From NCBI GenBank assembly GCA_963663225.1, contig OY760142.1, positions 1,508,509 through 1,572,508 of the forward strand: DNA of 64,000 nucleotides. The letters are read 5' to 3'. The DNA comes from Nitrospirota bacterium (GTDB taxonomy: Bacteria; Nitrospirota; UBA9217). The stretch's first letter is position 1. Each line of letters begins with the position of its first letter. The position numbers were made by a program, and so were the translations under genes. Under the pieces are notes generated by a model. It saw only the letters and a list, made by a program, of their open reading frames with translations, was not told the DNA's origin and ran no database searches. Below are positions 39,854-63,059 of this stretch, in pieces.

Positions 39854-39905
39854 GAAATGTGAACGTTGGTAAAAGGATATTTTTTGCAGAGAAAGGAAGC
39901 ATATT

Positions 39906-42575: not shown

Positions 42576-42589
42576 AAGGAGGATGCTTA

Positions 42590-43485
42590 TGATCAGGAAA
42601 CGTATGCTGCAAATGCTGGTGTTGGTTCTTATTGTGATGCTGGTGCCCGTGGTGGCGGCAGCACGGGATGCCGCCCCGATTGTATCAACAGACTGGCTCG
42701 AAAAGAACCTGAAAAACAACAATGTGGTGATTATCGATATTCGGAAGGTGGAAGAATACAAGGCAGGCCACATTCCCGGAGCGGTTAATGCGGTCTATGG
42801 AACATGGGCGATTATGAAGGGTGGCCTGAGAAATGAGCTGCCCGCAGCAGATGACTTGTTTGATGCAATTGGTGCCGCAGGTATTGAGCCGACATCAAGC
42901 GTGGTTGTCGTAGGGAATGTTGAAACAACACCCGATCGCACCGATGTTACGAGAGTTGCTTGGACACTCAAGTACGCAGGCATTGAAAATGTTGCACTGC
43001 TCGATGGTGGTTATAAAAAATGGTTGGCGGATAAAAAGACGATATCTACCGACGTGGTGAAAGCAAAAACAAAAACATACAAAGGAAAAATCAATGCCAA
43101 TCTTTTTACGAACAAAGACTATGTGTTAAGCCAACTTGGTAAGGCAACAATTGTCGATGTCAGGGAAAAAGATTTTTACGAGGGCAAGAAAAAATTCGAT
43201 TTTGTAGCTAAAGCAGGAAGAGTCCCCGGCGCAAAGAATTTGCCCACCTCACTTCCTTATACAAAAGAGGGGACATTCAAGGACAAAGCAGAACTTACTG
43301 CGATTGCGGCGAATGTTGTGGGAACCGATGTATCAAAAGAAATAATCACCTATTGTGATACAGGCAAAGTATGTTCAGCCTGGACATTCTTGCTGTCTGA
43401 AGTCCTTGGATACAAGAATGTAAAGGATTACGACGGTTCTATGGAAGAATGGACAAAAGATCCTAAGGCTCCGTTCGAACCGTAA
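42590..43485 (+). CDS. periplasmic tandem-rhodanese sulfurtransferase (thiosulfate/3-mercaptopyruvate sulfurtransferase-like)
   Basis: Signal peptide. Two rhodanese modules, the second with active-site Cys in YCDTGKVCSA. AGGAGG RBS. Confidence 0.8.
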
Positions 43486-45654: not shown

Positions 45655-46590
45655 TCAATATCCTGCAAGAATCATTTCAAGGAGTGCCATGCGGACATAC
45701 AATCCGTTTTCGGCTTGTTCGAAGTACTTGGCCCTCGGATCACGATCAACGGCAAAGCTGATTTCAGTCACGCGCGGCAGGGGATGCATAAGGATGGAGT
45801 TTTTTTTCATCAGGTCGAGAATCTCAGTATTGATGGTAAAGCGTTCACTCTCCTTCACTACCTCTTCGTACGTGCTTTGCGGGTCATCTTGAAAGCGTTC
45901 TCGCTGCACTCTTGTCTGGTAAATAACATCCGCAACTGGGGCGACTGCCCGCAAATCATCCGTTTCGCTCCAGGAAATCCGGTGTTCATCAAGGTATGCC
46001 TTAATGTCTTCGCCCATCTTTGTCTGGACCGGTGAAACGAAGATAATACGGTTATCGGGAAAATGTTTTGCGAGAAAATACGAAAGAGAGCGAACCGTGC
46101 GTCCGTGCGCGAGGTCGCCGACCATCGCCACCGTAAGCCCCTGGATCCCCGCGAACGACTTGCGTATGGTGTACAAATCGAGGAGCGCCTGAGTCGGGTG
46201 CTGGCCTTTGCCGTCTCCGGCGTTGATTACCGGTACTTTTGAAAATCGCTGGGCCCGTTCTGCGCCGCCTTCCTTATGGTAGCGAAGAACGATCACGTCG
46301 CAATACGTACTGATGACACGAATGGAATCTTCAAGGCTTTCACCTTTTGCTTTTGAGGAAAACTGCTGCGCATTTTCCGTGCTGATGACATCCCCGCCCA
46401 GGTGTTTCATGGCCGCCTCAAAACTTAACCGAGTTCTGGTGCTCGGTTCATAAAATAACGAGGACATAAGCTTTCCATGGAGGACGCGCTGGACCGGTTT
46501 TCGTTCCATTTTTTCTGCGACGCTGAAAATAGTATTTAAGGTATCTGCATCAAATTGTTGCGCTTCGATGACCCCGCCTAATTTTTTCAT
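45655..46590 (-). CDS. pyrB: aspartate carbamoyltransferase catalytic subunit
   Basis: STRTR, HPTQ and HPLP motifs. AGGAG RBS at the internal Met. Confidence 0.9.
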   Translation of the reverse strand: MKKLGGVIEAQQFDADTLNTIFSVAEKMERKPVQRVLHGKLMSSLFYEPSTRTRLSFEAAMKHLGGDVISTENAQQFSSKAKGESLEDSIRVISTYCDVIVLRYHKEGGAERAQRFSKVPVINAGDGKGQHPTQALLDLYTIRKSFAGIQGLTVAMVGDLAHGRTVRSLSYFLAKHFPDNRIIFVSPVQTKMGEDIKAYLDEHRISWSETDDLRAVAPVADVIYQTRVQRERFQDDPQSTYEEVVKESERFTINTEILDLMKKNSILMHPLPRVTEISFAVDRDPRAKYFEQAENGLYVRMALLEMILAGY

Positions 46591-47201
46591 GAACAGTCTC
46601 CTTAAAAAGTTTCTGAAGAATGGTTCGGCAGCAGCATAAAAACCGACTGTAATCCGATCGATTATAACATATTTCAAATTGTCGTATACCAGAAAATCAT
46701 AAATATACAGATAACCTGATAATAACAAGTATTGCGGGAATGATTAAAGTAGACTATAATTAAGCGTTCTATCGTTCCGAAGCATTATAGGGTACCATGC
46801 AGCGTATCGAATTGTAACCCAAAATAAGTAAGAGCTGTCAAGCATAGCCAACAGATAAAAAGAAAGGTGGCCTTATGCTCAGTTCAAACGTGCTGCTGCG
46901 AATTCCTATTCCCGCGTTTTTTCTCTCTCCGGACTGCTTGCCGGAGCAGTCCACGGGGAATCAATCTCACCTGACGAAGAAATTATCATTATCGGCGGCA
47001 ATCGAAACTATCCTCTATTATACGAATTCCTTCAACAAAGTAATGCCTGATCCAAAAGTGGCGCATACCTTGCTCGATAGGGGGAGATATGCCTTCACAA
47101 GCGAATAGCCGTCATAAAAAGAGCTATAATAAGTAACAAGTATCTAGCGTATCGAGGCCCACCGCATTCATGGTTAACTTCATGGACAAAAGGAGAAAAA
47201 A

Positions 47202-48188
47202 ATGAAAAGTCTGGTAAGCGTGCTTTGCATTGTAGTGCTCACAGTTGTTTTTACCGTACCTTCATTTGCAGCGGACAAGGACCAATATCCTTCTAAGGTA
47301 ATAACAATCATTGTGCCATTCTCCGCTGGGGGACCGTCAGACACGGTAGCCCGTCTGCTCGCTCAGGCCATGGGACCGGTCCTCAAGACGCAGATTATTG
47401 TTGAAAATGTCGGTGGTGCGGGTGGAACCATTGGAGCCGCCAGGGTTGCCCAGGCTTCGCCCGATGGATATACGCTCTTTGTGCATCATATCGGTCATTC
47501 CACGGCCCCGGCACTTTATCGCAAACTGCCTTACGACCCTATCAGGGATTTTGAACCGATCGGACTGGTCAATGATGGAGCAATGGCTCTGGTGGCCAGA
47601 AAAAATTTTCCTGCAGACAACCTCAAGGAACTGATCACCTATGTAAAAGCCAACAAGGACAAAGTCAATCTGGCCAATGCGGGCGTAGGCTCCGCTTCGC
47701 ATTTGTGCGGGATACTTTTTATGTCCGCCATCCAGACGGACTTCATGACTATTCCGTATAAGGGAACGGGACCGGCCATGAACGACCTTCTCGGCGGCCA
47801 GGTGGATTTCATGTGCGACCAGACGACGAATGCCACGAGCCATATCAAAGCCGGAAAAGTCAGGGTGTATGGCGTGACCACGAAAAAACGAATCGATTCC
47901 ATGCCGAATGTTCCTACGATGAGTGAGGCGGGCCTTCCGAATTTTACGATAACCGTCTGGCATGCCCTGTATGCACCGAAAGGCACGCCAAAACCGATTA
48001 TTGCGAAGCTCTCAAAGGCTTTGCAGGAGGCACTGAAGAACCCCGTCTTAAAACAACGGTACGCCGATCTGGGCTCCGAACCTGTTGCGCAGAACCGCGC
48101 GACTCCCGAGGCCCTCAGAGCTCATCTCAAGGCTGAAATCAATAAATGGGGACCGATCATAAAAAAAGCAGGTGTGTTCGCAGATTGA
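47202..48188 (+). CDS. tctC: tripartite tricarboxylate transporter substrate-binding protein (TctC/Bug family)
   Basis: Signal peptide. PYKGTGPAMNDLLGGQVD motif. Confidence 0.8.
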   Translation: MKSLVSVLCIVVLTVVFTVPSFAADKDQYPSKVITIIVPFSAGGPSDTVARLLAQAMGPVLKTQIIVENVGGAGGTIGAARVAQASPDGYTLFVHHIGHSTAPALYRKLPYDPIRDFEPIGLVNDGAMALVARKNFPADNLKELITYVKANKDKVNLANAGVGSASHLCGILFMSAIQTDFMTIPYKGTGPAMNDLLGGQVDFMCDQTTNATSHIKAGKVRVYGVTTKKRIDSMPNVPTMSEAGLPNFTITVWHALYAPKGTPKPIIAKLSKALQEALKNPVLKQRYADLGSEPVAQNRATPEALRAHLKAEINKWGPIIKKAGVFAD

Positions 48189-48203
48189 TCTGGGGAGGGT
48201 GGT

Positions 48204-48665
48204 TTGAGACATATAGTGCGCAACACAAAAGATTTCTGGATCGGCCTCATCTATATCGCTATCGGATCTGCTGCCCTCATAATCAGCAGAGACTATGGCA
48301 TGGGTACGGCGGTGAGGATGGGGCCGGCCTATTTCCCCATCATACTCAGCGTTCTTTTGGTTACGATCGGGATAATTTCACTTATTCGTTCATTTCTTAA
48401 ACCAGGCGGTCCTGTCGGCGACTTTGCATGGAAAGGCTTTTTCTTCGTCATCGCGTCGACCATCCTGTTCGGTTTTATCGTTCGGGGAGCAGGATTGCTT
48501 ATTGCGTTGCCTCTCCTGATAATCATCAGCTCCTGCGCAAGCACCCGTTTTCGCTGGCAGTACTCGCTGGCGTTGGCAGCCGGTGTGACCGTATTTTGCA
48601 TTTTGGTATTTCAAAAAGGGCTGGGAGTTCCGATTCCCATTGTGGGGCCATGGTTCGGACAATAG
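48204..48665 (+). CDS. tctB: tripartite tricarboxylate transporter small permease TctB
   Basis: 153 aa, 4 TM, sitting between tctC and tctA. Confidence 0.6.
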   Translation: MRHIVRNTKDFWIGLIYIAIGSAALIISRDYGMGTAVRMGPAYFPIILSVLLVTIGIISLIRSFLKPGGPVGDFAWKGFFFVIASTILFGFIVRGAGLLIALPLLIIISSCASTRFRWQYSLALAAGVTVFCILVFQKGLGVPIPIVGPWFGQ

Positions 48666-48796
48666 CATTGGGAGGAGGACGCTCCGGCCAGCATCGGGAT
48701 TTTAACTTAAAGCATGGACAGCTGGATTTTTTGAAAAATTAAAAACTGGACGCTCGTGAAAATTCTAAGCGGAAGTGCTGAACGTAGCGAGGGACT

Positions 48797-50296
48797 ATGG
48801 ATCTGATTGCCAATATTGGTTTGGGTCTGTCGACCGCATTAACGCCGACCAATCTGCTGTATTGTCTTATAGGTGTTTTTCTCGGAACCCTGATTGGGGT
48901 GCTGCCAGGACTTGGGCCGACCGCAACGATTGCGATGCTGCTGCCTGTCACCTTTACGTTGCCGCCGGTTTCCGCACTCATCATGCTTGCTGGCATCTAT
49001 TACGGCTCCCAATACGGTGGGTCTACAACATCCATTCTGGTCAATGTTCCGGGAGAGGCCGCTTCCGTAGTCACAGCGCTCGACGGATATCAGATGGCGC
49101 GCAAGGGACGTGCCGGAGTTGCCTTGGCTACCGCAGCAATCGGTTCCTTCTTTGCCGGCACGGTTTCGACAATCATCCTCGCTCTGTTTGCCCCGCCTCT
49201 GGCTGCTATTGCGCTTAAGTTTGGTCCTGCGGAATTTTTCTCTCTCATGGTTCTGGGACTCCTCGCTTCGATGGTCCTTGCGAGGGGATCGCTGCTGCAT
49301 GCTACCGGAATGGTTGTTCTGGGACTGCTTCTGGGGCTGGTTGGGGCGGATGTCAACACCGGCACCCAGCGGTTTACCTTTGGCATACCGCAACTTGCTG
49401 ATGGCATCGGATTTGTGGTGGTTGCCATGGGCATGTTCGGCCTCGCGGAGATCATCCGCAACCTGGAGCATGAGGAGCAGCGATCAACAATCGTGAACAA
49501 AATTTCGAGTCTGATGCCGACCAGAGAGGACTGGAAACGCATCGTAGGTCCGATTCTGCGCGGAACCGGGATCGGGTCAGCGCTCGGCATACTTCCCGGT
49601 AGCGGTTCCATTCTGGGGTCGTTTGCAGCGTATGCCATAGAAAAAAAAGTTTCGAAGCACGGCAAGGAATTCGGAACAGGGGCGATTGAGGGTGTTGCTG
49701 CACCGGAGTCGGCGAACAATGCCGGGGCCCAGACTTCCTTCATCCCGATGCTTACCCTGGGCATTCCTTCGAATCCTGTGATGGCGCTCATGATTGGAGC
49801 GATGATCATTCAGGGGATTCAGCCCGGTCCTTCCGTGATCAACGAACAGCCGGTATTGTTTTGGGGCATCATCGTTTCCATGTGGATCGGCAACCTCTTT
49901 CTTGTCATTCTTAACCTGCCTATGATCGGCATGTGGGTGCGCATTGTAAGCGTGCCCTATCAACTCCTTTTTCCGGCGATCCTGGTGTTCTGCGGCATCG
50001 GCGTATTCAGTTTGAATAATACCGAATTCGATATTTACCTCATGGCGTTGTTCGGCCTGCTCGGCTATATCTTCGTCAAATTGGACTGCGAGCCTGCTCC
50101 CATGCTGCTGGCGTTCATTCTTGGTCCGTTGATGGAGGAGTATATGCGCCGGGCGTTGCTGCTCTCGCGCGGCGATCCGATGATATTCCTTACGCGTCCG
50201 ATCAGCGCTACGCTGCTCGCGCTCGGCGCGCTCGCAATCGTTGCGGCCAGCCTCCCGATTTTTTATAAAAAACGCGAAGAAACATTTCGTGAATAG
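48797..50296 (+). CDS. tctA: tripartite tricarboxylate transporter large permease TctA
   Basis: 499-aa polytopic protein with TctA-type N-terminus MDLIANIGLGLSTALTPTNLLYCLIGVFLGTLIGVLPGLGP. Confidence 0.85.
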   Translation: MDLIANIGLGLSTALTPTNLLYCLIGVFLGTLIGVLPGLGPTATIAMLLPVTFTLPPVSALIMLAGIYYGSQYGGSTTSILVNVPGEAASVVTALDGYQMARKGRAGVALATAAIGSFFAGTVSTIILALFAPPLAAIALKFGPAEFFSLMVLGLLASMVLARGSLLHATGMVVLGLLLGLVGADVNTGTQRFTFGIPQLADGIGFVVVAMGMFGLAEIIRNLEHEEQRSTIVNKISSLMPTREDWKRIVGPILRGTGIGSALGILPGSGSILGSFAAYAIEKKVSKHGKEFGTGAIEGVAAPESANNAGAQTSFIPMLTLGIPSNPVMALMIGAMIIQGIQPGPSVINEQPVLFWGIIVSMWIGNLFLVILNLPMIGMWVRIVSVPYQLLFPAILVFCGIGVFSLNNTEFDIYLMALFGLLGYIFVKLDCEPAPMLLAFILGPLMEEYMRRALLLSRGDPMIFLTRPISATLLALGALAIVAASLPIFYKKREETFRE

Positions 50297-50396
50297 TAAA
50301 CAATTTCTTTAAGTCCTCCCAGATGATCGTATTGTCTCATAAGTCTTCCGGTTTCATTTTTTTCAGAAAAAAACTCTTAAAATCCATCTAACGCTT

Positions 50397-50412
50397 TGGC
50401 ACTATTTTTGAT
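50397..50412 (+). promoter_or_regulatory. sigma54-type -24/-12 element (TGGCAC-N5-TTGA), imperfect -12
   Basis: TGGCAC is perfect. The -12 reads GA instead of GC. Lies about 110 nt upstream of the ferredoxin-AOR pair. Confidence 0.3.
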
Positions 50413-50521: not shown

Positions 50522-50956
50522 ATGAAAATACTGACAACGCCCAGAATGGAACGGTGCATCGGGTGCCATTCCTGCTCCCTGGCCTGTGCACGGCTGGTAC
50601 ACAAACGGCTGTCCTGGGACACTGCCGGTATTCGCATATCCTCATCCGGAGGACTCTCAACGGGATTTGAGGCCCGGACGTGCGTTGCCTGTGACCCAGC
50701 GCCGTGCGCCGCAGCCTGCCCTACAGGTGCATACTCGCAACGGAAAGACGGTGGCGTCATCGTGCGGAAAAATCTCTGCATACGATGCGGTGCATGCGAA
50801 CGGGCCTGCCCCGTGGACGCGATTTACCGTGATTTCACCGGCGAGCCTTTTGTGTGCATCCACTGCGGCCGCTGCGTTCCGTTCTGTCCGCACGACTGCC
50901 TTGAGTTGGGGGAAGCCGGAACCAGAACAGCGGCGGAGAAGGGGGCGGCGTCATGA
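50522..50956 (+). CDS. 4Fe-4S dicluster ferredoxin, probable electron-transfer partner of AOR
   Basis: CIGCHSCSLAC, CVACDPAPCAAACP, CIRCGACERACP and CIHCGRCVPFCP motifs. Stop overlaps the AOR start (ATGA). Confidence 0.75.
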   Translation: MKILTTPRMERCIGCHSCSLACARLVHKRLSWDTAGIRISSSGGLSTGFEARTCVACDPAPCAAACPTGAYSQRKDGGVIVRKNLCIRCGACERACPVDAIYRDFTGEPFVCIHCGRCVPFCPHDCLELGEAGTRTAAEKGAAS

Positions 50957-52692
50957 TCAGAAATCAATTCAGGGTGCTTGTTGTTGATCTGGCCACCGGG
51001 AAGGGCAACATCATCATGGTTGACGGAAGAGACAGCGTGGCCGGCGGCAGCGGACTTGCGGCGCTTTTGTTCGGCAAGTATGGCTATCCGGATCGTCCGT
51101 GGAGCGACGCGGAACAGCCGCTTATTTTTGCTATCGGTCCGCTTACCGGCTACTTTCCGCTCATGAGCAAGACCGTATGTGCGTTCAAGTCGCCATATCA
51201 CGACCAGTATGCCGAAAGCCACGGCGGCGGCCGTTCCGCACTTTCACTCCGTTTTGCCGATCTGGACGCGCTCGTGATTACGGGCAAGGCCGCGCGACCG
51301 TCCGCCTTGTCGGTGGGATCACGGCACTTGGAAGTAAAAGAAGTCCACTATCTCTGGGGCAAGGATCTTTTTTATACCGGGAAAATGCTGCGCAAAATGT
51401 TCACCGGTACAGGACATCGGAGCATTCTGCGCATCGGACCCGCGGGTGAGACCGGCTCTGCCATGGCAGGCATCAATGTGGATTCCTACCGCCATTTCGG
51501 CAGGCTCGGCGGCGGCGCGGTCATGGGCAACAAGAACCTGAAAGCTATTGTGATACAGGGTGACGGAAGTTTTCCTCTCATGGACTCCACGGAGTATCCG
51601 AAGCTGTTCCAAGAAGTCCATACCAAACTGACGGATACGGACATGATGAGCAAATACCACAATCTCGGTACGCCGGTGAATGTTGCGGTGCTGAATCAGA
51701 TCAAGGCGCTCCCTATCCGCAACCTTCAGCAGACTTTCGATCCGGACATCGGCGGTATTACCGGAGAAAAGTTTGCAGAGGCGGCGCTGCTCAGAAATGC
51801 CGCGTGTTCCGGCTGCCCTGTGGGGTGCATTCATATTGGTTTTGTCCGGGAACGATTCCAGGAAGAGAACCAGTATCTCTACCGTCAGGTTCCGTATGAC
51901 CATGAACCGATTTTTGCCGTGGGAGCCATGCTTTCGGTTAAAAACTGCTTTGCAGTGCTCGGGCTTCTTGACGTGGTGGAGAAGATGGGGCTCGATGTAA
52001 TGTCTGCCGGCGTAGCGCTTGCGTGGGCGACGGAAGCCATGGAAAAAGCCCTCATCACCACGCGGGAGACCATCGTTCCTCTTGCATTCGGCAACACGGA
52101 AGGATACAAAAAAGCAGTGGAGCATCTCGCGTACGGTTCGAATGAGTTTTATCGGATTCTCGCGCAGGGAACTCTGAAGGCGGCAGAACACTATGGCGGA
52201 AAAGATTTTGCCTGTGTCCTTGGGCAAGAAATGGGCGGATACGCAACCGGCGAGGTTTTCTTTACATCTCAGGCGCTCGGGTTCCGGCACTCCCATCTCG
52301 ACACGGCTGGATATACATACGATCAGAAGCAGACGGACAAAGATGTTCCGAAAGCTGTGGACTTTTTGATCAAAGACGAGCAGGGCCGAGTGTTTCTTAC
52401 GTCCATGGTTTCCTGTCTTTTTGCCCGCAATGTATATTCAGATGATTTGCTCGCAGCCTGCTTAAAATCAGTAGGCTACAGCACGCTTGCTGACAACATC
52501 GGTGCGGTCTCACGAAGCATACAGGCGCTCCGCTGGAAGACTCGTTTAGCGACCGGGTTCAAACCGGAAACAGTGACTATACCAAAACGTTTTTCAGAAC
52601 TGACTACCTGGAAAGGGTCGATTGATACTGCGTACATGCAGGGACTCATGAATGCCTATAGCCAGCGTATTCTTGCGTTGGGCAGGGAGTAA
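50953..52692 (+). CDS. aldehyde:ferredoxin oxidoreductase family (tungstopterin) enzyme
   Basis: AOR N-terminal domain (FRVLVVDLATGK...GGSGLAALLF) and a C-terminal domain with an Fe-S Cys pattern (CSGCPVGC). 579 aa. Confidence 0.85.
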   Translation: MIRNQFRVLVVDLATGKGNIIMVDGRDSVAGGSGLAALLFGKYGYPDRPWSDAEQPLIFAIGPLTGYFPLMSKTVCAFKSPYHDQYAESHGGGRSALSLRFADLDALVITGKAARPSALSVGSRHLEVKEVHYLWGKDLFYTGKMLRKMFTGTGHRSILRIGPAGETGSAMAGINVDSYRHFGRLGGGAVMGNKNLKAIVIQGDGSFPLMDSTEYPKLFQEVHTKLTDTDMMSKYHNLGTPVNVAVLNQIKALPIRNLQQTFDPDIGGITGEKFAEAALLRNAACSGCPVGCIHIGFVRERFQEENQYLYRQVPYDHEPIFAVGAMLSVKNCFAVLGLLDVVEKMGLDVMSAGVALAWATEAMEKALITTRETIVPLAFGNTEGYKKAVEHLAYGSNEFYRILAQGTLKAAEHYGGKDFACVLGQEMGGYATGEVFFTSQALGFRHSHLDTAGYTYDQKQTDKDVPKAVDFLIKDEQGRVFLTSMVSCLFARNVYSDDLLAACLKSVGYSTLADNIGAVSRSIQALRWKTRLATGFKPETVTIPKRFSELTTWKGSIDTAYMQGLMNAYSQRILALGRE

Positions 52693-54853: not shown

Positions 54854-56770
54854 ATGAGCAAAATCACTTTTTTCATTCCTTACCCGGAAATTATTCCCGT
54901 CGTGGAAGATGTTTTCCAGGAGCAGGGCACGGACGGCTGGGAGCTGGAAATTGTTTTGTCCAAGTTTGTGCGTGAAATCGCGGACTGGAAAGACACGGGC
55001 ACGGACGTTTTGATCGCCCGCGGCGTGACAGCCGCCGCCCTGAAAAAGATCGTGCGGGGCACGCCTGTGGTGGAGTTGCCGGTAAGCGGCTACGAAGTAA
55101 TGCGGGCCATTTGGGAATGTCAGAAAAAATACGCGCCCCGGAAGATTGCGATCGTCGGTTCCCGCGACATGATCTACGGTGTCAAGAAGATCGAAGAAAT
55201 AATCGGAATAGAACTTATGGTGGTGGAAGTGCAGCATGAAGATGAGGCCGAGTCGGTCCTTCAGGCGGTAAAGGACAGCGGTGTTTCGGTAATTATCGGC
55301 GGAGTCATGTCCACCTGGGTGGCAAAACGGATCGGTCTGCAGGCAGAGTTCATTCAGATAGGACAGGACGCAATATACCGGGCCTTGAGCGAAGCGAAGA
55401 GGGTTGCGCTCGTGCGACGGCAGGAACAGGAGCGGGGAGAGCAGTTTCGCGCGATTCTGGAGTATTCAACCGAAGGTGTTGTCGCCGTCGATGCGGACGG
55501 CGTCATTAATCTGATCAACGCGGCAGCCGTGAAATTGGCGAATGTGAACGAAGAGGCGGTCGGCCTCCCCGTGGACAATGTTTTTCCGCAACTGGGCCTG
55601 ACGAAAGCTCTGGAGTCCGGGCGCGCGGAATTGGGAGAAATTGAAACAATAAACGGACAGCCGATGGCTGTTAATCGGGTCCCGTTTTCCATCGGCGGCC
55701 AGGCGGTCGGCGCGGTGGCAACATTTCAGCCGGTGAGCGTGATCCAGGAACTGGAAGGCAAGATCCGGCGAAAGGTCTATCAGCGCGGCCATGTGGCGAA
55801 ACTGACCGCATCCAACATTCTGGGCAAAAGTCCTGCGATACAGCGCGCAATAGCCATTGCAAAAGAGTTCAGTGATATAAACTCAACCGTGCTTATTATG
55901 GGAGAAACAGGCACGGGCAAGGAAATATTTGCCCAAAGCATTCACAATGCAAGCGGCCGCAAAAAAGGCCCGTTTGTTGCTGTCAACTGCGCGGCCCTGC
56001 CGGAAAATCTTCTGGAGAGCGAATTGTTCGGTTACACGGAGGGGGCTTTTACCGGGGCGGCGCGCGGCGGAAAAATCGGCCTGTTTGAATTGGCCCATAT
56101 GGGGACGATATTCCTGGATGAAATTTCGGAAATATCGCATAAGCTACAGGGCCGTTTGCTGCGGGTGCTGCAGGAACGGGAAATAATGCGCCTTGGCGAC
56201 GACAAGCTGATCCCGATCAATGTGCGTGTTATTGCTGCCACGAACCAGGACTTGTATCGCTTGATGCGGAAAGGTCTTTTTCGCGAAGATCTTTATTACC
56301 GGGTTGATATCCTCCGGCTTGTTCTGCCGCCGCTCAGGGAGCGCCGTGAGGACATTATTCCGCTGCTGCATCATTTTTTGAAAGAATATTGCCACCACTT
56401 CAATAAAAAATTCCGGGATATCAGCCCAGAAGCCCAGCGGCTGTTTCAAGACTATTACTGGCCGGGCAATGTCAGAGAACTGCGGAATGTCGCGGAGCGC
56501 CTGGCGGCGCTCAGCCGGAGCGGCGTGATAGAGCCTGAAGATGTCGAGGGGATGTTCGCACAATCACCCGATCAAGCGCATGCCGCTGTGCCGGTGTCCG
56601 GGGTTGAATCCGCGTTGATGTACACGGCCGGCGGCACGGACCTGAACCGTACGCTGCTCATGAAGGCTCTGGAAGAGTCTCATTATCATTACGGAAAAGC
56701 CGCGGCTAAACTGGGTATCAGCAGAACCACTCTCTGGCGTCGACTTAAAGAAAACGATTCTCGGAAGTAG
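54854..56770 (+). CDS. sigma54-dependent transcriptional activator with PrpR-type N-terminal sensor + PAS + AAA+ + Fis HTH
   Basis: GETGTGKE Walker A. GAFTGA motif (ESELFGYTEGAFTGA). C-terminal HTH (AAAKLGISRTTLWRRLK). The N-terminal about 200 aa resemble the PrpR/AcoR sensor domain. Confidence 0.85.
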   Translation: MSKITFFIPYPEIIPVVEDVFQEQGTDGWELEIVLSKFVREIADWKDTGTDVLIARGVTAAALKKIVRGTPVVELPVSGYEVMRAIWECQKKYAPRKIAIVGSRDMIYGVKKIEEIIGIELMVVEVQHEDEAESVLQAVKDSGVSVIIGGVMSTWVAKRIGLQAEFIQIGQDAIYRALSEAKRVALVRRQEQERGEQFRAILEYSTEGVVAVDADGVINLINAAAVKLANVNEEAVGLPVDNVFPQLGLTKALESGRAELGEIETINGQPMAVNRVPFSIGGQAVGAVATFQPVSVIQELEGKIRRKVYQRGHVAKLTASNILGKSPAIQRAIAIAKEFSDINSTVLIMGETGTGKEIFAQSIHNASGRKKGPFVAVNCAALPENLLESELFGYTEGAFTGAARGGKIGLFELAHMGTIFLDEISEISHKLQGRLLRVLQEREIMRLGDDKLIPINVRVIAATNQDLYRLMRKGLFREDLYYRVDILRLVLPPLRERREDIIPLLHHFLKEYCHHFNKKFRDISPEAQRLFQDYYWPGNVRELRNVAERLAALSRSGVIEPEDVEGMFAQSPDQAHAAVPVSGVESALMYTAGGTDLNRTLLMKALEESHYHYGKAAAKLGISRTTLWRRLKENDSRK

Positions 56771-56995
56771 TTTAAACCAAATCCCTATAATCTTTCCTGG
56801 ACTTACCTCTCTTCCTTTTTCAGGGTACCTGCCGCCTATGGATTGTCTTTAGTAAAGATATATTTGCTGAATACTTTTCATGAGTAATGAAACATTTGAA
56901 ACATATGAAACGTAATCATTTTGCTGTTTCTGTAAAAAGTACGTATGGCCAGATATTTTTGTAATATATTCAAATAGTTATGTATGTATCTGGAT

Positions 56996-57011
56996 TGGTA
57001 TTGTTTTTGCT
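56996..57011 (+). promoter_or_regulatory. sigma54 -24/-12 promoter (TGGTAT-N5-TTGCT) upstream of the CODH-associated gene cluster
   Basis: GG at 56997-56998 and GC at 57009-57010 have the correct spacing. About 45 nt upstream of the GTG at 57056. Immediately downstream of the sigma54 activator gene. Confidence 0.5.
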
Positions 57012-57055
57012 CATACAGGAATGGCATCAAGCTATTGCAGAAAGGAGAAAAGCAG

Positions 57056-57801
57056 TGAAAGTAGACGAAACCAAATGCGTAGGATGTGGTCGTTGCGTTG
57101 CATACTGCACCATGGGAGCAATCGGTTTTACCAGTGACAACCATGGCCGGATATGCGCTCGCGTTGATCAGGAAGAATGCGTGGACTGCGGCGTATGCTA
57201 TCGGGCCGAGGTTTGTACAGGCAAGGCACTTTACGAACCGATGCCGGAATGGCCCCGGTCCGTACGCGGTACTTTCAGCAATCCGCTTGTGGAGCACAAG
57301 GAAACTCGAGTGCCCGGGCGGGGAACCGAGGAAATGAAAACCAATGACATTACCGGCCGTTTTAAGTTTGGGGAAGCCGGAATGGCGATTGAGATGGGAC
57401 GGCCGAGCACAGGGGCGCGTTTTTCCGACATCGAGAAGGTTGCCATGGCTATCGCATCGCTGGGAGGCATAGTTTTCGAACCGAGGAATCCCGTGACGAC
57501 GCTCATGGTTGATAAAAACGCCGGCAAGATGAATCCGGAAATCATGAATGAAAAAGTTTTGTCCGCAATTATCGAGATGACCGTTCCCCTGGGACGGGTC
57601 CAGGAGATAATTGCAGCCGTAAAAAAAGTGACGAAGGAGATTTCCACGGTATGCAGTTTTGACCTCACTTGCAAGGTTCATCAGGGAGATGCGACTCCTG
57701 CTTTTGACCTGGCCCTGGCAGCCGGTGTGAAGCCGACGCCCAACGGAAAAACGAACATCGGGCTCGGGAAACCGTTCTTTGTTGAGGAGGCAGCGCGATG
57801 A
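57056..57801 (+). CDS. Fe-S protein: N-terminal 2x[4Fe-4S] ferredoxin domain + about 170-aa domain of unknown function (GTG start)
   Basis: CVGCGRCVAYC and CVDCGVCYRAEVC motifs. AGGAGA RBS 6 nt before GTG. The C-terminal domain is unrecognised. Confidence 0.5.
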
Positions 57802-58439
57802 GCCATACATTACATCGGCGGGGAACACGGGAGAGTCTGAAGAAAGATTTTGTTCTGTTTGCCATGTCGGCAAAAGGCATTAACGAAGTGGGGTCCAATA
57901 CGAAGCTGAAACGGTTCCTTGAAATCGTGAGCGAATATGGCCCGGTGAATGTCGGCGACATGAGAACGGGAAACAGCTTTATAACCCCCCAGCAGGAGAT
58001 TGTCAACAAGACACGCGATACATCCATCGTGCATGGCGTATTCGACAACCGGGAGTCGCTCATCAAGGCGATGAAGGCGTTGAAAGATGAAGATCTGGGC
58101 ATCTCCGTGATCGTGTCCGGCCTTTTCGACGAGGTCCAGGAGTGCTGCAAGCAGGCCGGCGTCAAACGGCATACGTGCGAAACGTCTCTCGGCATTTGGG
58201 GGAAGACGGAGCGGCTGCCCGACGAAGATATTCTTCGGTTCACGACTATGTGCGGGCATGGCCAGGTGCCGTTTAATCTGGTCAGAAAGATGATTGCCGA
58301 TATCAAAGAAGGTAAACGGACGGTTCAGGAGGCGGCGGTGGAGTTGGCAAAACCCTGCCAGTGTGGAGTCCTTAATCCCAATCGCGCCGCAGAGATGCTT
58401 GAAGAAATACTGTGCCTGTGGGGCATACGGGTCTCTTAA
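57798..58439 (+). CDS. hypothetical Cys-containing protein (213 aa), translationally coupled to the upstream gene
   Basis: ATGA overlap with the preceding stop. GAGGAGG RBS. Cys motifs ECCKQ, MCGHG and CQCG. No family recognised. Confidence 0.45.
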   Translation: MSHTLHRRGTRESLKKDFVLFAMSAKGINEVGSNTKLKRFLEIVSEYGPVNVGDMRTGNSFITPQQEIVNKTRDTSIVHGVFDNRESLIKAMKALKDEDLGISVIVSGLFDEVQECCKQAGVKRHTCETSLGIWGKTERLPDEDILRFTTMCGHGQVPFNLVRKMIADIKEGKRTVQEAAVELAKPCQCGVLNPNRAAEMLEEILCLWGIRVS

Positions 58440-58472
58440 GAGCAAGGCGACTGTTTACAGGTGGAGGGAATA

Positions 58473-59027
58473 ATGAAACGTATCTGGGTGGACCGGGAAA
58501 AATGCCTGGGTTGTAAAACTTGCGAATTGCAGTGCGCAGTGGAGCGAAATTCAGTAACCAAAAAGCTGTTCGACGCGGTACGGGAGAACCCAAAGCCGGT
58601 AGCGCGTGTCGGGGTTTTCGGACCGAGCGGGGCGAGTTTTCCGCTCCAGTGTCGCCATTGTCAGGACGCCACCTGCTTGATGGCCTGCCCTGCGGGCGCA
58701 ATGCAGCGGGATCCGGAAACAGGGACGACGTTCGTTGCCCAGGACAAGTGCAGGGGCTGCTGGATGTGTGTTATGTCCTGCCCCTTCGGCACGGTAACTC
58801 CGTCGGCAAAATACAAAGTAGCGATGAAATGTGATGCCTGTGCGCATATGGAGCAGCCTGCCTGCGTCGCGTCCTGTCCGACCGGCGCGCTCGTCTATGG
58901 CGATGAGGAGGCGTATGCGAAGGTACTGGCTGTAAAGCGGGGCAACATAGCTGTTTTCGTCAATTCGACAGCGCCGCAAGGGCGGTCGAAGGCGCTCAGT
59001 TTGGACTTTTCAAAGGAGGATAAATAA
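58473..59027 (+). CDS. cooF: CooF-like iron-sulfur electron-transfer protein (multi-[4Fe-4S])
   Basis: Four ferredoxin-type Cys clusters (CLGCKTCELQC, CRHCQDATCLMACP, CRGCWMCVMSCP and CDACAHMEQPACVASCP). Confidence 0.7.
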   Translation: MKRIWVDREKCLGCKTCELQCAVERNSVTKKLFDAVRENPKPVARVGVFGPSGASFPLQCRHCQDATCLMACPAGAMQRDPETGTTFVAQDKCRGCWMCVMSCPFGTVTPSAKYKVAMKCDACAHMEQPACVASCPTGALVYGDEEAYAKVLAVKRGNIAVFVNSTAPQGRSKALSLDFSKEDK

Positions 59028-59031
59028 TCTT

Positions 59032-60480
59032 ATGAAAGAAGTTCGGAAAAAATCGTTTGATGCGGCCACCAATGAGATGCTTATCAAGGCCCATCGCTCA
59101 AAGACGGAAGTGATCTGGGACCGTGCTGACGCAATGCAGCCCCAGTGTGGTTTTGGACGCATGAACATCTGCTGCAGCGACTGTTCTGAAGGTCCCTGCC
59201 GGGTGAACCCGTTTGCCGACGTTCCGCAGCAGACGATATGCGGACGGACGCAGGCAGATCTGGTTTCCGGAAGTTTTCTGAAGCAGGCTGCGGACGGAGC
59301 GGTTGCTTTTGCCGGCCTGGGACTTGAGTTTAATGCAAAGCTGGACGCTCGTGCGCTGCAGACGGTATGCACGACCAGGGACAGTATGCTCGCTCCCGCG
59401 GATTATTCCTTCCGGGTATCGGAAATCGGCCAGACGGTTGCAAAGACATTGCAGGCGATCCGTGAGGTCAAGGAACAGGTATATGGAAAAACGGAACCCA
59501 AGGTTGTGGCAGCAAATATGGGCGCGCTGAAAGCCGATGCCGCAAACATTGTGCTGCTCGGCCATACGGCGCCCCAGCTTGTTCAGGCGGTCGTGAATGC
59601 CGCTTCAAAGCATGCGGTCCCGTGTAATGTCGTGGCTCTGTGCGGTGGTGAAGCGAACGGCGGGCTTCCGGTATTGACGAATTACGACTCGCAGGAAATG
59701 CCGCTGCTGACTGGAGCGGTTGATCTGCTGATTACCGGTTCGCAGTGTGTCATGCCGGCGACCGTGTCCTTGGCGAAAACCAGGAAGGTGGCACTGCTCG
59801 CTGCATCCGCATTGAATGATGAAAAGAAAATTAAAGAAGCTGTTGAAACGGCCGCACAGGCTTTCCAGCAGCGGCGTGGAAAAGATGTTCAAATTCCGGG
59901 TGCAGTGGAGCAGGTGAACTCGGGATTCACGGCGGCGAACAGCAAACAGGCATTTAAAGCATTGCAAACGGCAACCGCCAAGGGTGCTCTCAAGGGAATG
60001 GTCTATCTCGGCGGATGCGGTAATATCGCGCAGACCCAGGATGCCCGGATCGTCCAGACGGCCGAAAAACTGCTCGCGGATGGATATGTGCTTGTTACCG
60101 CCGGCTGTGCGGGCGCAGCTCTGGCAAAGGCGGGCATGTGCCGTCAGGAATATGCGGCGAGGGAAGGATTGAAGAACATCGCGGAGCTCAATCTTCCTCC
60201 GGTGCTTCATATCGGGGCTTGCCACGATGCCGATTGGTTCCTTGAGATGGCCAGGGACGCTAAAACAAACGGCGTGCCTGTTTTTGTCGTTCTGCAGGAA
60301 ATCAACCACAACAAGGTTCTGGCAACTGCCGTTGCCTTTGCCTCACAGGGATTAAAAACCTATGTTGATATGGGCGAAGCGGCAAGCCTTCCCGGGCTGA
60401 AACTGCCGGGGGAATTGCTTCCGCTGGCAGAATTGCCGCAGTTGATGCCGAAGCCGGCAGCCGTTGCCGCCGCACGATAA
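59032..60480 (+). CDS. cooS: Ni-CODH catalytic subunit family (CooS-like), compact 482-aa form
   Basis: N-terminal QPQCGFGRMNICCSDCSEGPCRVNP (CooS B/D-cluster motif). Segments matching C-cluster ligand regions (LKADAANIVLLGHT, ALCGGEA, GSQCVMP, LGGCGNI, TAGCAGA, PPVLHIGACHD). Confidence 0.7.
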   Translation: MKEVRKKSFDAATNEMLIKAHRSKTEVIWDRADAMQPQCGFGRMNICCSDCSEGPCRVNPFADVPQQTICGRTQADLVSGSFLKQAADGAVAFAGLGLEFNAKLDARALQTVCTTRDSMLAPADYSFRVSEIGQTVAKTLQAIREVKEQVYGKTEPKVVAANMGALKADAANIVLLGHTAPQLVQAVVNAASKHAVPCNVVALCGGEANGGLPVLTNYDSQEMPLLTGAVDLLITGSQCVMPATVSLAKTRKVALLAASALNDEKKIKEAVETAAQAFQQRRGKDVQIPGAVEQVNSGFTAANSKQAFKALQTATAKGALKGMVYLGGCGNIAQTQDARIVQTAEKLLADGYVLVTAGCAGAALAKAGMCRQEYAAREGLKNIAELNLPPVLHIGACHDADWFLEMARDAKTNGVPVFVVLQEINHNKVLATAVAFASQGLKTYVDMGEAASLPGLKLPGELLPLAELPQLMPKPAAVAAAR

Positions 60481-60495
60481 CGCTGGAGGATGCGC

Positions 60496-61710
60496 ATGTA
60501 TATTATCATTGGTCAGGGGATAGCGGGCGCCACGGCCGCCATGACGCTGCGAAAACTGGACCCCCGGACTCCCGTGACAATTATTACCGATGAACATGAT
60601 TATTTGTACAGCCGGATAGATTTGCCGGATATTATAGCCGGAAAACTGAAGCCGATTGACGCCATGCTCCAACAGGTGGAAAACCTTGCAAACGACAACG
60701 TAATCTGCATCATGGGAGACAAGGTTGCGGCAGTGACTCCTGCGCAAAAAACAGTAGAGCTCGCTTCAGGAACGCTCCTGAAATACACGAAACTGCTTTT
60801 TGCCACGGGATCCGCACCCATCATGCCGTCTCTTCCCGGCATTGACTCTCCCGGCGTGTACAGTTTGTGGACGATGCGTCAGGCAAAAGAGATCGTTCAT
60901 GCCGCTGAACGTGCTCAGAGTGCCGTGGTGGTCGGGGCGGGCTTGATCGGGCTTAAAACAGCGCTTGCGCTGAAAGCGCGCGGCTTGAAGACAACGATTG
61001 TTGAAAAACTGCCCCGCGTACTGCCGCGCCAGCTTGATGATGCATCCTCAGACATGCTGGCGGACAAAGTCCGAAGCAAAGGCGTTGATGTTCTGGTCAA
61101 TACGACGGTTGAGGGTATCGCGGTCTCTCAGGGGGCCGTGAGCGGCGTGCGTTTGTCCGGCGGTGTTCTTCCTGCCGAAATGGTCGTCATGGCCATCGGA
61201 GTAAAGCCGAACAAGGAGCTTGCTGCTGCAACAGGGATTAAAACGGGGCGCGGCATCATTGTCAATGAATTCCAGGAAGCATCCATGCCGGATATGTATG
61301 CCGCAGGGGATGCCGCAGAAGTACTTGATCCTCTTACCGGGGAATTGACGGTACCGGCCATCTGGCCGGTTGCTGTGGAGCAGGGCCGGATTGCCGCAAG
61401 CAACATGGCCGGTTTCAAGGAAACATACGACGGCACTGCCGCCATGAATGCTGTTGAAATCGGCGGCATGCCGCTGGTGTCGATAGGCGATATTGAAGGG
61501 AAAGCGGGCGACGTCTGCCTGATTGCGCAGAAATATGATGCCTACCGGAAAGTCGTTGTGCGCGATACTATTGTCAAGGGTGTGCTCTGCCTGGGAGACA
61601 TTCGCCAGGCGGGGGTGATCGGCAGACTGGTATCGCATCCCGTGGACATCAAAGAGGTTGAAAGGCTGATCTCTCCGTACTTCAGCTATGCAGATTTAAT
61701 AGCCGTGTAG
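60496..61710 (+). CDS. FAD-dependent pyridine nucleotide-disulfide oxidoreductase (FNOR-type partner of CooS-CooF)
   Basis: GxGxxG FAD motif (IIGQGIAGATAA) and second dinucleotide motif (VVVGAGLIGLKTA). GGAGG RBS. Confidence 0.8.
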   Translation: MYIIIGQGIAGATAAMTLRKLDPRTPVTIITDEHDYLYSRIDLPDIIAGKLKPIDAMLQQVENLANDNVICIMGDKVAAVTPAQKTVELASGTLLKYTKLLFATGSAPIMPSLPGIDSPGVYSLWTMRQAKEIVHAAERAQSAVVVGAGLIGLKTALALKARGLKTTIVEKLPRVLPRQLDDASSDMLADKVRSKGVDVLVNTTVEGIAVSQGAVSGVRLSGGVLPAEMVVMAIGVKPNKELAAATGIKTGRGIIVNEFQEASMPDMYAAGDAAEVLDPLTGELTVPAIWPVAVEQGRIAASNMAGFKETYDGTAAMNAVEIGGMPLVSIGDIEGKAGDVCLIAQKYDAYRKVVVRDTIVKGVLCLGDIRQAGVIGRLVSHPVDIKEVERLISPYFSYADLIAV

Positions 61711-61775
61711 TTTGCGATAAAACCGGCTTGCTCTCACAAAGGCGAGCTGATACAATGGACGCAAGGAGGTTGGCC

Positions 61776-62762
61776 ATGTCTATTAAAACGAAAGCAGCCC
61801 TGCTGAAAGGGCCTTACGACATTGATCTTATGGACCGCGAGCTGGTTTGCGGCGAAGATGAGGTTATCGTAAAGAACCATTTAATAGGGATTTGCGGGTC
61901 AGATAAGAGCTTTTACCGCGGACAGCTTCCGCCTAAAACAGCCGAATTCAGACAGGAGCCGAAATTTCCCTTCTACCTGGGCCACGAAAGCGGCGGCACT
62001 GTTGTTGAAATCGGTTCAAAAGTGAGGGATTTCAAAGTCGGCGACAAGGTCATCTGTTTTGGCTGGAACAACAATTATGCGACATACTTCCTTGCAAAGG
62101 ACTTCCAGTTGCAGCCAGTTCCGGACGGTCTGGAAATGGATTTTGCCGCTCTTGGTGAACCCATATCGTGCGCCATGTATTCCGGTCTTCATTCAGGGGT
62201 TCAGTTGGGAGACGTTGTTGTCGTCATGGGCGGCGGGTTTGCCGGGCAGATCATTGCGCAATGCGCAAAACAAAAGGGCGCCTATAACGTGATCGTGGCC
62301 GATGTTCTTGATGGAAAACTGAAACTGGCCAAACAATTGGGTGCTGATATAACGGTGAATCTGAAAAAAGACAACCTTGCGGCAGTCGTGTCGGATCTTA
62401 CAAAAGGCCGGGGTGCAGACGTGGTTGTGGAGGCGGCCGGATCGGAAAGCTCGTTCAACACAGCCTCTGAAATCATCAAGCATAACGGCAAATTTGTTTT
62501 TTACAGCTGGGTGACACAGCCCGTTACCCTGAACATCAGCCGCTGGCATGACGACGGACTGGAATTTGTGAATACCTGCCTGGTCCATCATACCTGGCGG
62601 GAGCGGTATGTCTGGACTCCCGCAACGCTCCGCCCCGTCATTCAGGGGCAGGTCCAGATCCGGCCGCTTATAACGAACGAGTTCAAGCTGGAGGATATCA
62701 AGGCCGGCTTTGATCTCGCCGACAAGGATGATACCGCGATCAAGATCGTTTTCAGAATCTAA
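61776..62762 (+). CDS. zinc-dependent alcohol/polyol dehydrogenase (MDR family)
   Basis: GHESGG zinc motif. NAD-binding GGGFAGQ. CAAGGAGG RBS. Confidence 0.8.
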   Translation: MSIKTKAALLKGPYDIDLMDRELVCGEDEVIVKNHLIGICGSDKSFYRGQLPPKTAEFRQEPKFPFYLGHESGGTVVEIGSKVRDFKVGDKVICFGWNNNYATYFLAKDFQLQPVPDGLEMDFAALGEPISCAMYSGLHSGVQLGDVVVVMGGGFAGQIIAQCAKQKGAYNVIVADVLDGKLKLAKQLGADITVNLKKDNLAAVVSDLTKGRGADVVVEAAGSESSFNTASEIIKHNGKFVFYSWVTQPVTLNISRWHDDGLEFVNTCLVHHTWRERYVWTPATLRPVIQGQVQIRPLITNEFKLEDIKAGFDLADKDDTAIKIVFRI

Positions 62763-63059
62763 GAGCGGATTGCACAGTAAGACCGCTGTGATATGAAGGA
62801 ACTGAGGGGGACGTTTTTGCCGCATGATTCTGCGGTGTAAACGTCCCCGCCTATTTTTGTGGCTGCAAAGAGCTGTTGATACCAGCGGTGAGAAGACAAT
62901 TTTTTCTTTCCCTTGTCCATAAAGAAATCCTTGACAACCCCTTGAATAAGCCCTACCCTTAAGCAAGAAATCAGATGTTATGCAGAAGATTATGGGCGTT
63001 CTATTGCCGGAATACCGCTGCTTCCACGACCAGAAGGACGAATATCTATGCAGAGTCCT

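Follow-up and report, generated by a model that had tools for sequence, protein, structure and literature searches.

The window analysed here, 64,000 nucleotides of contig OY760142.1 from a Nitrospirota bacterium, raises the question of what a reduced relative of carbon monoxide dehydrogenase (CODH) does in an operon that begins with two proteins of no recognised family. On the + strand, the gene of a sigma-54 activator is followed by a 285-bp intergenic region and by genes X and Y, a CooF-type polyferredoxin, a short CooS-like protein (mini-CooS), an FAD/NAD(P)-dependent oxidoreductase (FNOR) and a Zn-dependent dehydrogenase. Since its description in 2012, mini-CooS, also known as clade G, has stood apart within the Ni-CODH family without explanation. 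The X-Y pair accompanies every mini-CooS examined yet is widespread in anaerobes that lack mini-CooS, and is therefore probably the core of an undescribed redox enzyme. With confidence and doubt evenly balanced, we propose that the operon encodes a multi-subunit Fe-S/flavin oxidoreductase that is centred on X-Y, controlled by sigma-54 and employed in anaerobic organic-acid catabolism.

Sequence and conservation of X and Y

The N-terminus of X is a 2x[4Fe-4S] ferredoxin domain with cysteines at positions 8, 11, 14, 18 and 42, 45, 48, 54, and it is followed by an orphan domain of ~185 residues that carries the invariant motif WPR..R..FS.P..H..T..GRGTEEMKT and many invariant charged residues, being rich in invariant Arg, Glu, Lys and His. 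Pfam matches to X are confined to Fer4 families at residues 1-54; the C-terminal domain has none at E<=10, and a PDB sequence search at the same threshold returned nothing for it. Scattered and inconsistent noise was all that a Pfam search (E<=10) returned for the C-terminal domains of six X proteins and for four Y proteins, and PDB profile searches with Y, full-length X and the X C-terminal domain gave ferredoxin-domain matches or nothing. Y has no Pfam, NCBIfam or PDB sequence relative and no significant fold match in the PDB; its AlphaFold2 model reached a pLDDT of 63 from the single sequence, which is poor, and of 90 with 77 sequences. A profile-profile comparison of X with Y indicates that they are unrelated (probability 2%). 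The sequence-only reading had left both genes without a family and had held that they are not cooC, cooT, cooJ or cooA; the HMM and profile checks likewise found no family for Y or the X C-terminal domain, and the second statement was upheld.

Y is 213 aa long in nearly all close homologues and ~205-220 aa long in the wider family. C152-G-H154 is present in 100% of 126 representatives at 50% identity and C187-x-C189 in 99% of them, and together these residues form a putative Cys3His metal or cluster site. The N-terminus reads M-[ST]-H-T-L-H-R, nearly always from residue 1, with R7 conserved in 97%, H6 in 92% and H3 in 87%. Over the X C-terminal domain and Y, ~40 polar residues are strongly conserved.

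Distribution and partners of the X-Y pair

At 90% identity the family comprises 1980 clusters of X and 1232 clusters of Y, the latter with 899 representatives at 50%, and a scan of one genome per species detected Y across many anaerobic phyla, in 592 genomes or more. X and Y had been read from the sequence alone as unusual CODH accessories, a description that does not fit a pair found to be autonomous, widespread and equipped with several alternative partners. In a reverse metagenome scan, X-Y was present in ~25 of 25 assessable mini-CooS loci (at least 43% identity) and in none of the ~46 loci of canonical CooS (27-34% identity), and it is much more widespread without any CODH than with one.

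Partners were counted within 6 kb of Y in the 79 loci most similar to the window's Y. X lies directly upstream of Y in 76 of them. A CooS-like gene is near Y in 26, and 24 of these also have CooF and FNOR; a tungsten-containing aldehyde:ferredoxin oxidoreductase (AOR) is present in 12, typically in the order X-Y-(CooF-like)-AOR; X is fused to a Pyr_redox_2 plus Fer4_20 flavoprotein in five; and a Zn dehydrogenase gene recurs beside X-Y in 12. The nearest contig (L005), from a metagenome-assembled genome (MAG) labelled Nitrospiraceae, encodes proteins 94-100% identical to those of the window. Natural fusions join X to Y (P0379), Y to a CooF-like polyferredoxin (P0252) and, in Syntrophales, a GltD-like protein (FAD/NAD(P)H, FeS) to X. 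Where the GltD-like fusion accompanies Y, no partner gene resembling CooF, CooS, FNOR or AOR lies within 6 kb, and there X-Y itself must therefore use or supply electrons. Given that the pair is autonomous and widespread and has alternative partners, the likely catalytic centre shifts away from CO oxidation, and the coupling of CO to NAD(P)H and alcohol chemistry that the sequence-only reading put forward is one possibility among others.

Tandem arrays of two or three X-Y pairs lie beside transporters of the TRAP or tripartite tricarboxylate (TTT) type in Dehalococcoidia and in one MAG of Deltaproteobacteria (L044, 6194-10618; L082, 395-5850; L038; L062). These arrays look like a substrate-specific expansion of paralogues.

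X and Y might instead serve maturation or metal delivery, supplying Ni to mini-CooS or tungsten or Fe-S to AOR without being subunits, with the N-terminal His motif of Y binding the metal. The conservation of that motif, almost always at residue 1, agrees with such a role, as do the association of X-Y with two different metalloenzyme families and the absence of CooC, CooT and CooJ from the operon and of a CooC-type P-loop protein from the window. A CODH maturation factor was nevertheless rejected as the principal interpretation because X-Y occurs without any CODH. The pair is also found with CooS-like proteins that lack C-cluster ligands, fused to a GltD-like flavoprotein, in tandem arrays or without a metalloenzyme neighbour, and a 2x[4Fe-4S] ferredoxin domain or a fusion to a polyferredoxin is rare among chaperones. 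We regard maturation as very improbable.

Mini-CooS and its C-cluster-less sister group

By its PF03063 score of 130 bits (cutoff 27), the CooS-like protein of the window is a member of the Prismane/CODH family, and a PDB search ranks CODH-II and other CooS proteins as its nearest relatives (E 3e-49). On the CooS equivalog TIGR01702 it scores 165.1 bits and does not reach the cutoff of 478. It is ~150 residues shorter than CODH-II of C. hydrogenoformans, with ~83 residues absent between CODH-II positions 97 and 230 and smaller gaps besides. The D-cluster ligands C39 and C47 and the B-cluster ligands C48, C51, C56 and C70 align one-to-one with CODH-II residues 39-70. The C-cluster residues of CODH-II, which we take to be His261, Cys295, Cys333, Cys446, Cys476 and Cys526 plus Lys563, have their equivalents in H178, C204, C239, C329, C359, C397 and K428, where C204 is the lone cysteine opposite Cys294-Cys295 and is equivalent by position only. 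The acid-base catalyst His93 is replaced by Phe93. The name "CooS-like" given in the sequence-only reading is therefore sound at the family level, in view of the Prismane match and the B-, C- and D-cluster ligands, and fails at the equivalog level and at His93.

Mini-CooS was first noted in Thermosinus carboxydivorans as a protein of 482 aa (Techtmann et al. 2012, PMC3328121) and was later assigned to Ni-CODH clade G (Inoue et al. 2022, PMC8776680). Published surveys of genomic context include one or two clade G sequences at most, or exclude the clade for lack of sequences. Mini-CooS proteins are recognised by a length of ~430-490 aa arising from multiple internal deletions, by retained metal ligands and by orthology to WP_007288589; all three features were found here, and judged by them the window protein is the mini-CooS already described. 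Within its clade, the B-, D- and C-cluster ligands and the Lys563 equivalent are invariant across 45-95% identity, so the C-cluster is under selection. Because of this invariance, and because mini-CooS was never seen without X-Y, the C-cluster probably still matters in the clade.

The 26 aligned CooS-like proteins that stand beside X-Y split into two groups. Group 1, in which all ligands are kept and the His93 equivalent is always Phe or Leu, contains the sequences from the window, Nitrospirota-labelled MAGs, Acidobacteriota, Sporomusaceae and T. carboxydivorans. Group 2 (14 of the 26), from Moorella, Desulfosporosinus, Peptococcaceae, Oscillospiraceae and Syntrophaceae, is only 20-24% identical to the window protein. 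Of the cluster ligands it keeps just the four cysteines of the B-cluster; those of the C-cluster have all been replaced, as have one or both of the D-cluster cysteines. Its resemblance to CODH-II is confined to the N-terminal B-cluster domain. Group 2 operons have the same five genes in varying order. In Moorella (L001) the order is dehydrogenase-CooF-CooS-like-X-Y-FNOR, with a divergent PrpR_N activator and a TGGCAT-N5-TTTGCA promoter; activator and promoter are present in at least Moorella and Gracilibacter (L020), and the dehydrogenase in Moorella and Desulfosporosinus (L016, L024). On this comparison of gene content, the shared operon architecture is independent of the C-cluster.

These observations bear on a conventional CO:NAD(P)+ oxidoreductase, in which mini-CooS would oxidise CO at a Ni,Fe C-cluster, CooF would carry the electrons to FNOR, X-Y, itself doing no chemistry, would serve like a ferredoxin as a dedicated second exit or entry for electrons, and the dehydrogenase would use the NAD(P)H. 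The invariant cluster ligands and Lys563 agree with this, as does the ferredoxin domain of X. CooF and FNOR adjoin the CODH-family gene with gaps of 4 and 9 nt, which is the arrangement that defines published CODH-CooF-FNOR clusters (PMC6344411), and the prototype host T. carboxydivorans is a carboxydotroph (PMC3328121). The loss of His93 in every member and the low TIGR01702 score speak against it. No CooC, CooT or CooJ gene for Ni insertion is present in the operon, and no CooC/ParA-type P-loop (GKGGxGK[ST]) in the 64-kb window. Moreover, the regulator is an organic-acid-type PrpR_N activator and not CooA or RcoM, the same five genes exist with CooS-like proteins that lack the C-cluster ligands, in Moorella even with activator, promoter and dehydrogenase, X-Y is far commoner without any CODH, and the ~40 strongly conserved polar residues of the X C-terminal domain and Y exceed the needs of a simple carrier. 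CO oxidation as the purpose of the operon is thus unlikely, though it retains some weight.

Sigma-54 control of the operon

The activator possesses an AAA+ domain with a GAFTGA loop (motif at 56042) and a Fis-type helix-turn-helix for DNA binding. It scores 391 on TIGR02329 (PrpR) against a cutoff of 499 and 419 on NF041552 (PrdR) against 795; being below both equivalog cutoffs, it is neither PrpR nor PrdR and has only the PrpR_N domain in common with them. The "PrpR-type sigma54 activator" of the sequence-only reading is accordingly correct as to the PrpR_N domain and the sigma-54 AAA+ domain and too specific as to the equivalog. No RpoN box was found in the window.

The same reading had placed a -24/-12 element upstream of X, and its GG and GC are where they were claimed to be. 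TGG-N9-TGCW, the bare pattern, is no commoner in the window than chance predicts (18 seen, 19.4 expected), and the stricter TGGYAY-N5-TTGCW occurs twice against 0.38 expected; as loose sigma-54 patterns are not enriched, the promoter call rests on position and chiefly on conservation across loci. A TGG(C/T)A(T/C)-N5-(T/A)TGC(T/A) element lies upstream of the module in most related loci that have the activator. Ten such loci carry it: the window, L005, L007 (TGGTATTTTTCTTGCT), L008 (TGGCATTTTTTTTGCT), L011 (TGGCACGGTTTATGCT), L001 of Moorella humiferrea (TGGCATTAAATTTGCA), L020 (TGGCATGATACTTGCA), L054 (TGGCATCAAACTTGCT), L088 of T. carboxydivorans (TGGCATGAAATTTGCT) and L098 (TGGTATGAAAATTGCA). 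Among the other loci with an activator, L096 has a CGG variant that retains the spacing of GG and GC, L094 and L095 have only a weak match distant from the module, and in L066 no match was found. Nine loci without an activator within 9 kb have neither the element nor the repeats described below in the 300-370 bp upstream of the module.

Between activator and promoter lie tandem 9-bp repeats of the form TGAAACAnn. The pattern gives two exact overlapping matches there, the sole exact ones in the window, and one match with one mismatch elsewhere; these three compare with 0.48 expected, a number reached by none of 100 shuffles. Two or three tandem copies are also found upstream of the -24/-12 element in L005, L008, L011, L088 and L098, the last with three perfect copies of TGAAACAAT, and dispersed copies are found in L020 and L096, such that TGAAAC repeats are common to Nitrospirota-labelled MAGs, Negativicutes and Bacillota. 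We take them to be the putative binding site of the activator. The regulatory part of our interpretation is well supported.

Proposed function and substrate

In the proposed scheme, the PrpR_N/PAS activator would sense a small carboxylic acid, bind the three TGAAACAnn repeats and switch on the -24/-12 promoter. An X-Y heterodimer would form the conserved core, to which X contributes two [4Fe-4S] clusters and the orphan domain and Y the Cys3His site and the His-rich N-terminus. A redox-partner module made up of CooF with its four clusters, mini-CooS with clusters B, C and D, and the FAD protein FNOR would wire X-Y to NAD(P)(H). It would be one among several interchangeable modules of this kind, and its layout would parallel AorA/AorB/AorC, the place of the catalytic subunit being taken by a CODH-like protein. 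A hydroxyl or carbonyl of the same substrate or product would be the target of the polyol-type Zn dehydrogenase. X-Y would be catalytic rather than an electron wire because of the partnerless loci with the GltD-like fusion, the many invariant polar residues and the arrays of paralogues. The X-Y family likely includes a new Fe-S enzyme of anaerobic carbon metabolism.

The neighbours of X-Y in other genomes point to a small 2-hydroxy or 2-oxo carboxylic acid as the substrate, which is our best guess and is held with low confidence. Recurring neighbours include carboxylate transporters of the TRAP (DctPQM) and TTT (TctABC) types, 2-hydroxyacid enzymes of the GlcD, YdiJ, Ldh_2, 2-Hacid_dh and LarA types, polyol-type Zn dehydrogenases, a methylmalonyl-CoA-decarboxylase-like carboxyltransferase and a cupin; four or five loci have AllF/AllG/AllH together with amidohydrolases and PucR as a regulator. 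The tctCBA operon and ferredoxin-AOR pair of the window itself fit the same organic-acid theme.

In L087 (5451-16320), L048, L056, L060 and L030, X-Y stands with AllF/AllG/AllH of the oxamate carbamoyltransferase type, an M20/M42 peptidase, an amidohydrolase, an SDR protein and PucR, and the same clusters contain a nucleoside ABC transporter and a purine nucleoside phosphorylase, a context of anaerobic ureide or purine degradation. In L036 (7574-13569), L037 and L040 (4064-8390), an operon runs from a thiamine pyrophosphate (TPP) enzyme through X and Y to one or two Frc-like family III CoA-transferases. The TPP enzyme and CoA-transferases of these Desulfobacterota-type loci all score under the NCBIfam cutoffs, the best matches being acetolactate synthase, Oxc, HACL and Frc, and an oxalate or oxamate substrate therefore stays a lead. 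Their own substrate may be oxalyl-CoA or of a 2-hydroxyacyl-CoA type.

A rival reading is a C1 hand-off, whereby X-Y would make or consume a C1 carbonyl (CO, formyl or carbamoyl), with glyoxylate, oxalate, oxamate or another 2-oxo acid of two to four carbons as its source, and pass it to the C-cluster of mini-CooS by channelling like that of CODH/acetyl-CoA synthase (ACS); elsewhere AOR would oxidise the corresponding aldehyde. The strict linkage of mini-CooS to X-Y is consistent with this, AOR and mini-CooS alternate at the same operon position, the CO/CO2 and aldehyde/acid couples are both of very low potential, and genes for C2 acids and ureides recur near X-Y (AllF/G/H, Frc-like CoA-transferases with the TPP enzyme, Ldh_2, GlcD and cupin). 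These points are purely contextual, however; the five-gene sets without a C-cluster argue that a hand-off is unnecessary, and the TPP and CoA-transferase neighbours lie under every equivalog cutoff, which leaves the hand-off improbable. It is distinctly improbable that X-Y represents a new class of Fe-S enzyme whose reaction splits off or builds a C1 unit at the carbonyl level on a small 2-oxo acid, with direct transfer, in the mini-CooS clade, of CO or of a bound carbonyl to the C-cluster. If that were true, mini-CooS would be the CODH half of a new two-enzyme machine like CODH/ACS for organic-acid catabolism, and not a CO scavenger.

Several points weigh against an oxidoreductase centred on X-Y. 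The C-cluster, being under selection, may be the true catalytic site in the clade of the window, with X-Y as its electron acceptor. Complex formation among X, Y and their partners we infer from gene order and fusions only, and the direction of electron flow in the module is likewise an extrapolation. The themes of the neighbourhoods are heterogeneous, and the step from neighbours to substrate is a weak one. The 79 loci are a non-random sample of the family, and 34 of them, some on short contigs, have no recognisable partner within 6 kb.

Operon organisation and the remainder of the window

The genes are on the + strand at essentially the coordinates first assigned (Table 1), except that the start given for X, 57056, is one base out of frame; the correct start is the GTG at 57055, which has AAAGGAG 7 nt upstream. 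The ATGA overlap of X and Y is genuine. From X to the dehydrogenase the intergenic gaps are -4, 33, 4, 9 and 65 nt, and consensus scans of the operon for internal sigma-70 promoter-like and terminator-like sites gave none above shuffled expectation. The consensus scan also overlooked the real terminator, because its loop is long, and it was located by separate folding: the hairpin after the dehydrogenase has a free energy of -31.1 kcal/mol (z = -4.45), and none of 200 shuffles folds equally well. With this terminator at their end, the six genes look like one transcription unit, and the tight packing and lack of excess internal sites support the single unit that had been supposed.

Table 1. Features of the operon and its control region, in window coordinates.
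Feature	Position	Strand	Description
Sigma-54 enhancer-binding protein	54854-56770	+	PrpR_N (PF06506, 6e-38), PAS, Sigma54_activat (PF00158, 1e-66), AAA_lid_14, HTH_8 (PF02954)
Candidate upstream activator sequence	56888-56914	+	Three tandem 9-bp repeats, TGAAACATT TGAAACATA TGAAACGTA, ~85-110 bp upstream of the -24 element
Predicted sigma-54 type -24/-12 promoter	56996-57011	+	TGGTATTGTTTTTGCT; GG 56997-56998, GC 57009-57010; ~44 nt upstream of the X start
Gene X	57055-57801	+	248 aa; GTG start
Gene Y	57798-58439	+	213 aa; ATGA-coupled to X
CooF/HycB-type polyferredoxin	58473-59027	+	184 aa; PF13247 Fer4_11, 3e-19; alternative GTG start at 58461
Mini-CooS (clade G Ni-CODH-like)	59032-60480	+	482 aa; PF03063
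FNOR, pyridine-nucleotide-disulfide type, FAD/NAD(P)-dependent	60490-61710	+	406 aa; PF07992 (1e-57), PF00070, Rubredoxin_C
Zn-dependent medium-chain dehydrogenase, polyol/threonine dehydrogenase type	61776-62762	+	328 aa; PF08240, PF00107
Predicted intrinsic terminator	62807-62859	+	17-pair interrupted hairpin (62807-62848), then T-run; UAUUUUUG

The most likely start of CooF is the ATG at 58473, which is preferred because of its ribosome-binding site GGTGGAGGG. For the dehydrogenase, whose reading frame is open from TTG 61728, the most likely start is the ATG at 61776, preferred on account of an AAGGAGG ribosome-binding site. CooF has 16 cysteines in four [4Fe-4S] motifs of the CxxCxxCxxxC type and is equal in length to its T. 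carboxydivorans orthologue. The best NCBIfam match of FNOR is PadH-like, with 251 bits and under its cutoff, and the nearest solved relatives of the dehydrogenase are threonine, sorbitol and ketose dehydrogenases.

Elsewhere in the window, a tctC-tctB-tctA operon for a tripartite tricarboxylate transporter occupies 47202-50296, in the region 4-10 kb upstream that also holds a ferredoxin-AOR pair. TGGCGCATACCTTGCT at 47059-47074, 128 nt upstream of tctC, is one mismatch from the -24/-12 consensus, and since TctA genes also recur beside X-Y in other genomes, tctCBA could be part of the same regulon. An aspartate/ornithine carbamoyltransferase-family gene (45655-46728, - strand) is divergent from tctCBA and may encode either a biosynthetic ArgF/PyrB or a catabolic enzyme of the YgeW or oxamate type. 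In the polyferredoxin-AOR pair (50523-52692), an open reading frame (ORF) for a 143-aa CooF/AorA-like protein (50523-50954) overlaps the AOR gene (50953-52692) by ATGA; upstream of the pair lie the -24/-12-like TGGCACTATTTTTGAT (50397-50412, ~110 nt away, with A in place of the -12 C) and an imperfect inverted TGAAAC motif (50351-50365).

A second sigma-54 activator is encoded at 22984-24498 on the - strand (GAFTGA at ~23673). Just downstream of it, TGGTATCCATTTTGCT (22774-22789, - strand) is the only other strict TGGYAY-N5-TTGCW in the window and is followed by no ORF of at least 140 aa. The short gap between a xanthine/uracil-family permease (36141-37493) and an ORF at 37596-38210 contains TGGCACCGGTTTTGCC (37548-37563), which departs from the -24/-12 consensus at one position. 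A DUF3300-DUF2950 pair and the cytochrome c7/c3-like and double-rhodanese proteins that follow it (38498-40874 and 41511-43485) are apparently unrelated to the operon.

Comparison with known systems

Mini-CooS, the association of CooF with FNOR and sigma-54 control as such are of kinds already known. In the literature searchable without subscription on mini-CooS, clade G and sigma-54 with CODH, no description was found of X, Y, the sigma-54 control of this operon or the C-cluster-less sister group, nor of X-Y as an obligate partner, of how autonomous and how broadly distributed the pair is, of its alternative pairing with AOR and GltD-like proteins or of the circuit of promoter and repeats. 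For mini-CooS the new elements are two invariant partners, a regulatory circuit of the organic-acid type rather than the CO-sensor type, and a sister group minus the C-cluster; together with a cultured host that has the same operon, T. carboxydivorans Nor1, they make the function of mini-CooS directly testable. With ~900 clusters at 50% identity and members in at least 592 species, X-Y is in itself an orphan family of large size; it spans many anaerobic phyla, and its members are connected to AORs, to CODH-like proteins or to flavoproteins that use NAD(P)H.

The mini-CooS of T. carboxydivorans Nor1 (WP_007288589) has the same length as that of the window, 482 aa, 52% identity to it and the same conserved cluster ligands. 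Its operon, activator-X-Y-CooF-miniCooS-FNOR with the TGGCATGAAATTTGCT promoter, is syntenic with that of the window, which has the Zn dehydrogenase in addition. The mini-CooS papers mention, of operon context, only a nearby cooF (PMC3328121, PMC8776680).

In CooS-CooF-FNOR clusters, for example those of Geobacter sulfurreducens and Clostridium ljungdahlii/autoethanogenum (PMC6344411), genes for the same three kinds of protein as in the operon stand next to one another: a member of the CODH family, a polyferredoxin of the CooF type and an oxidoreductase that uses FAD and NAD(P). In both, electrons are presumed to pass between NAD(P) and a site of low potential. Those clusters have a full-length CooS of clade C, D or E of ~630 aa and no X-Y, whereas the CooS of the window is ~150 aa shorter, lacks His93 and always has X-Y alongside.

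AorABC of Aromatoleum aromaticum consists of the polyferredoxin AorA, the tungsten-pterin protein AorB and the FAD subunit AorC. The operon shares with it the combination of a polyferredoxin, a low-potential catalytic subunit and an FAD/NAD subunit, and the best match of FNOR is the related PadH. It differs in that a CODH-like protein occupies the slot of the tungsten-pterin enzyme and in that X-Y has no counterpart in AorABC. To the NAD(P)H-FAD-[4Fe-4S] modules of the GltD/NfnB/PreT type, which feed a catalytic partner, the likeness lies in the Syntrophales X proteins fused to such a module; the flavoprotein of the window is instead a separate FNOR of another subfamily, connected via CooF and mini-CooS. 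As in PrpR and PrdR, the activator has a PrpR_N sensor followed by PAS, AAA+ and HTH_8 domains; it differs from both in falling below their equivalog cutoffs and in controlling a different target operon, that of X-Y.

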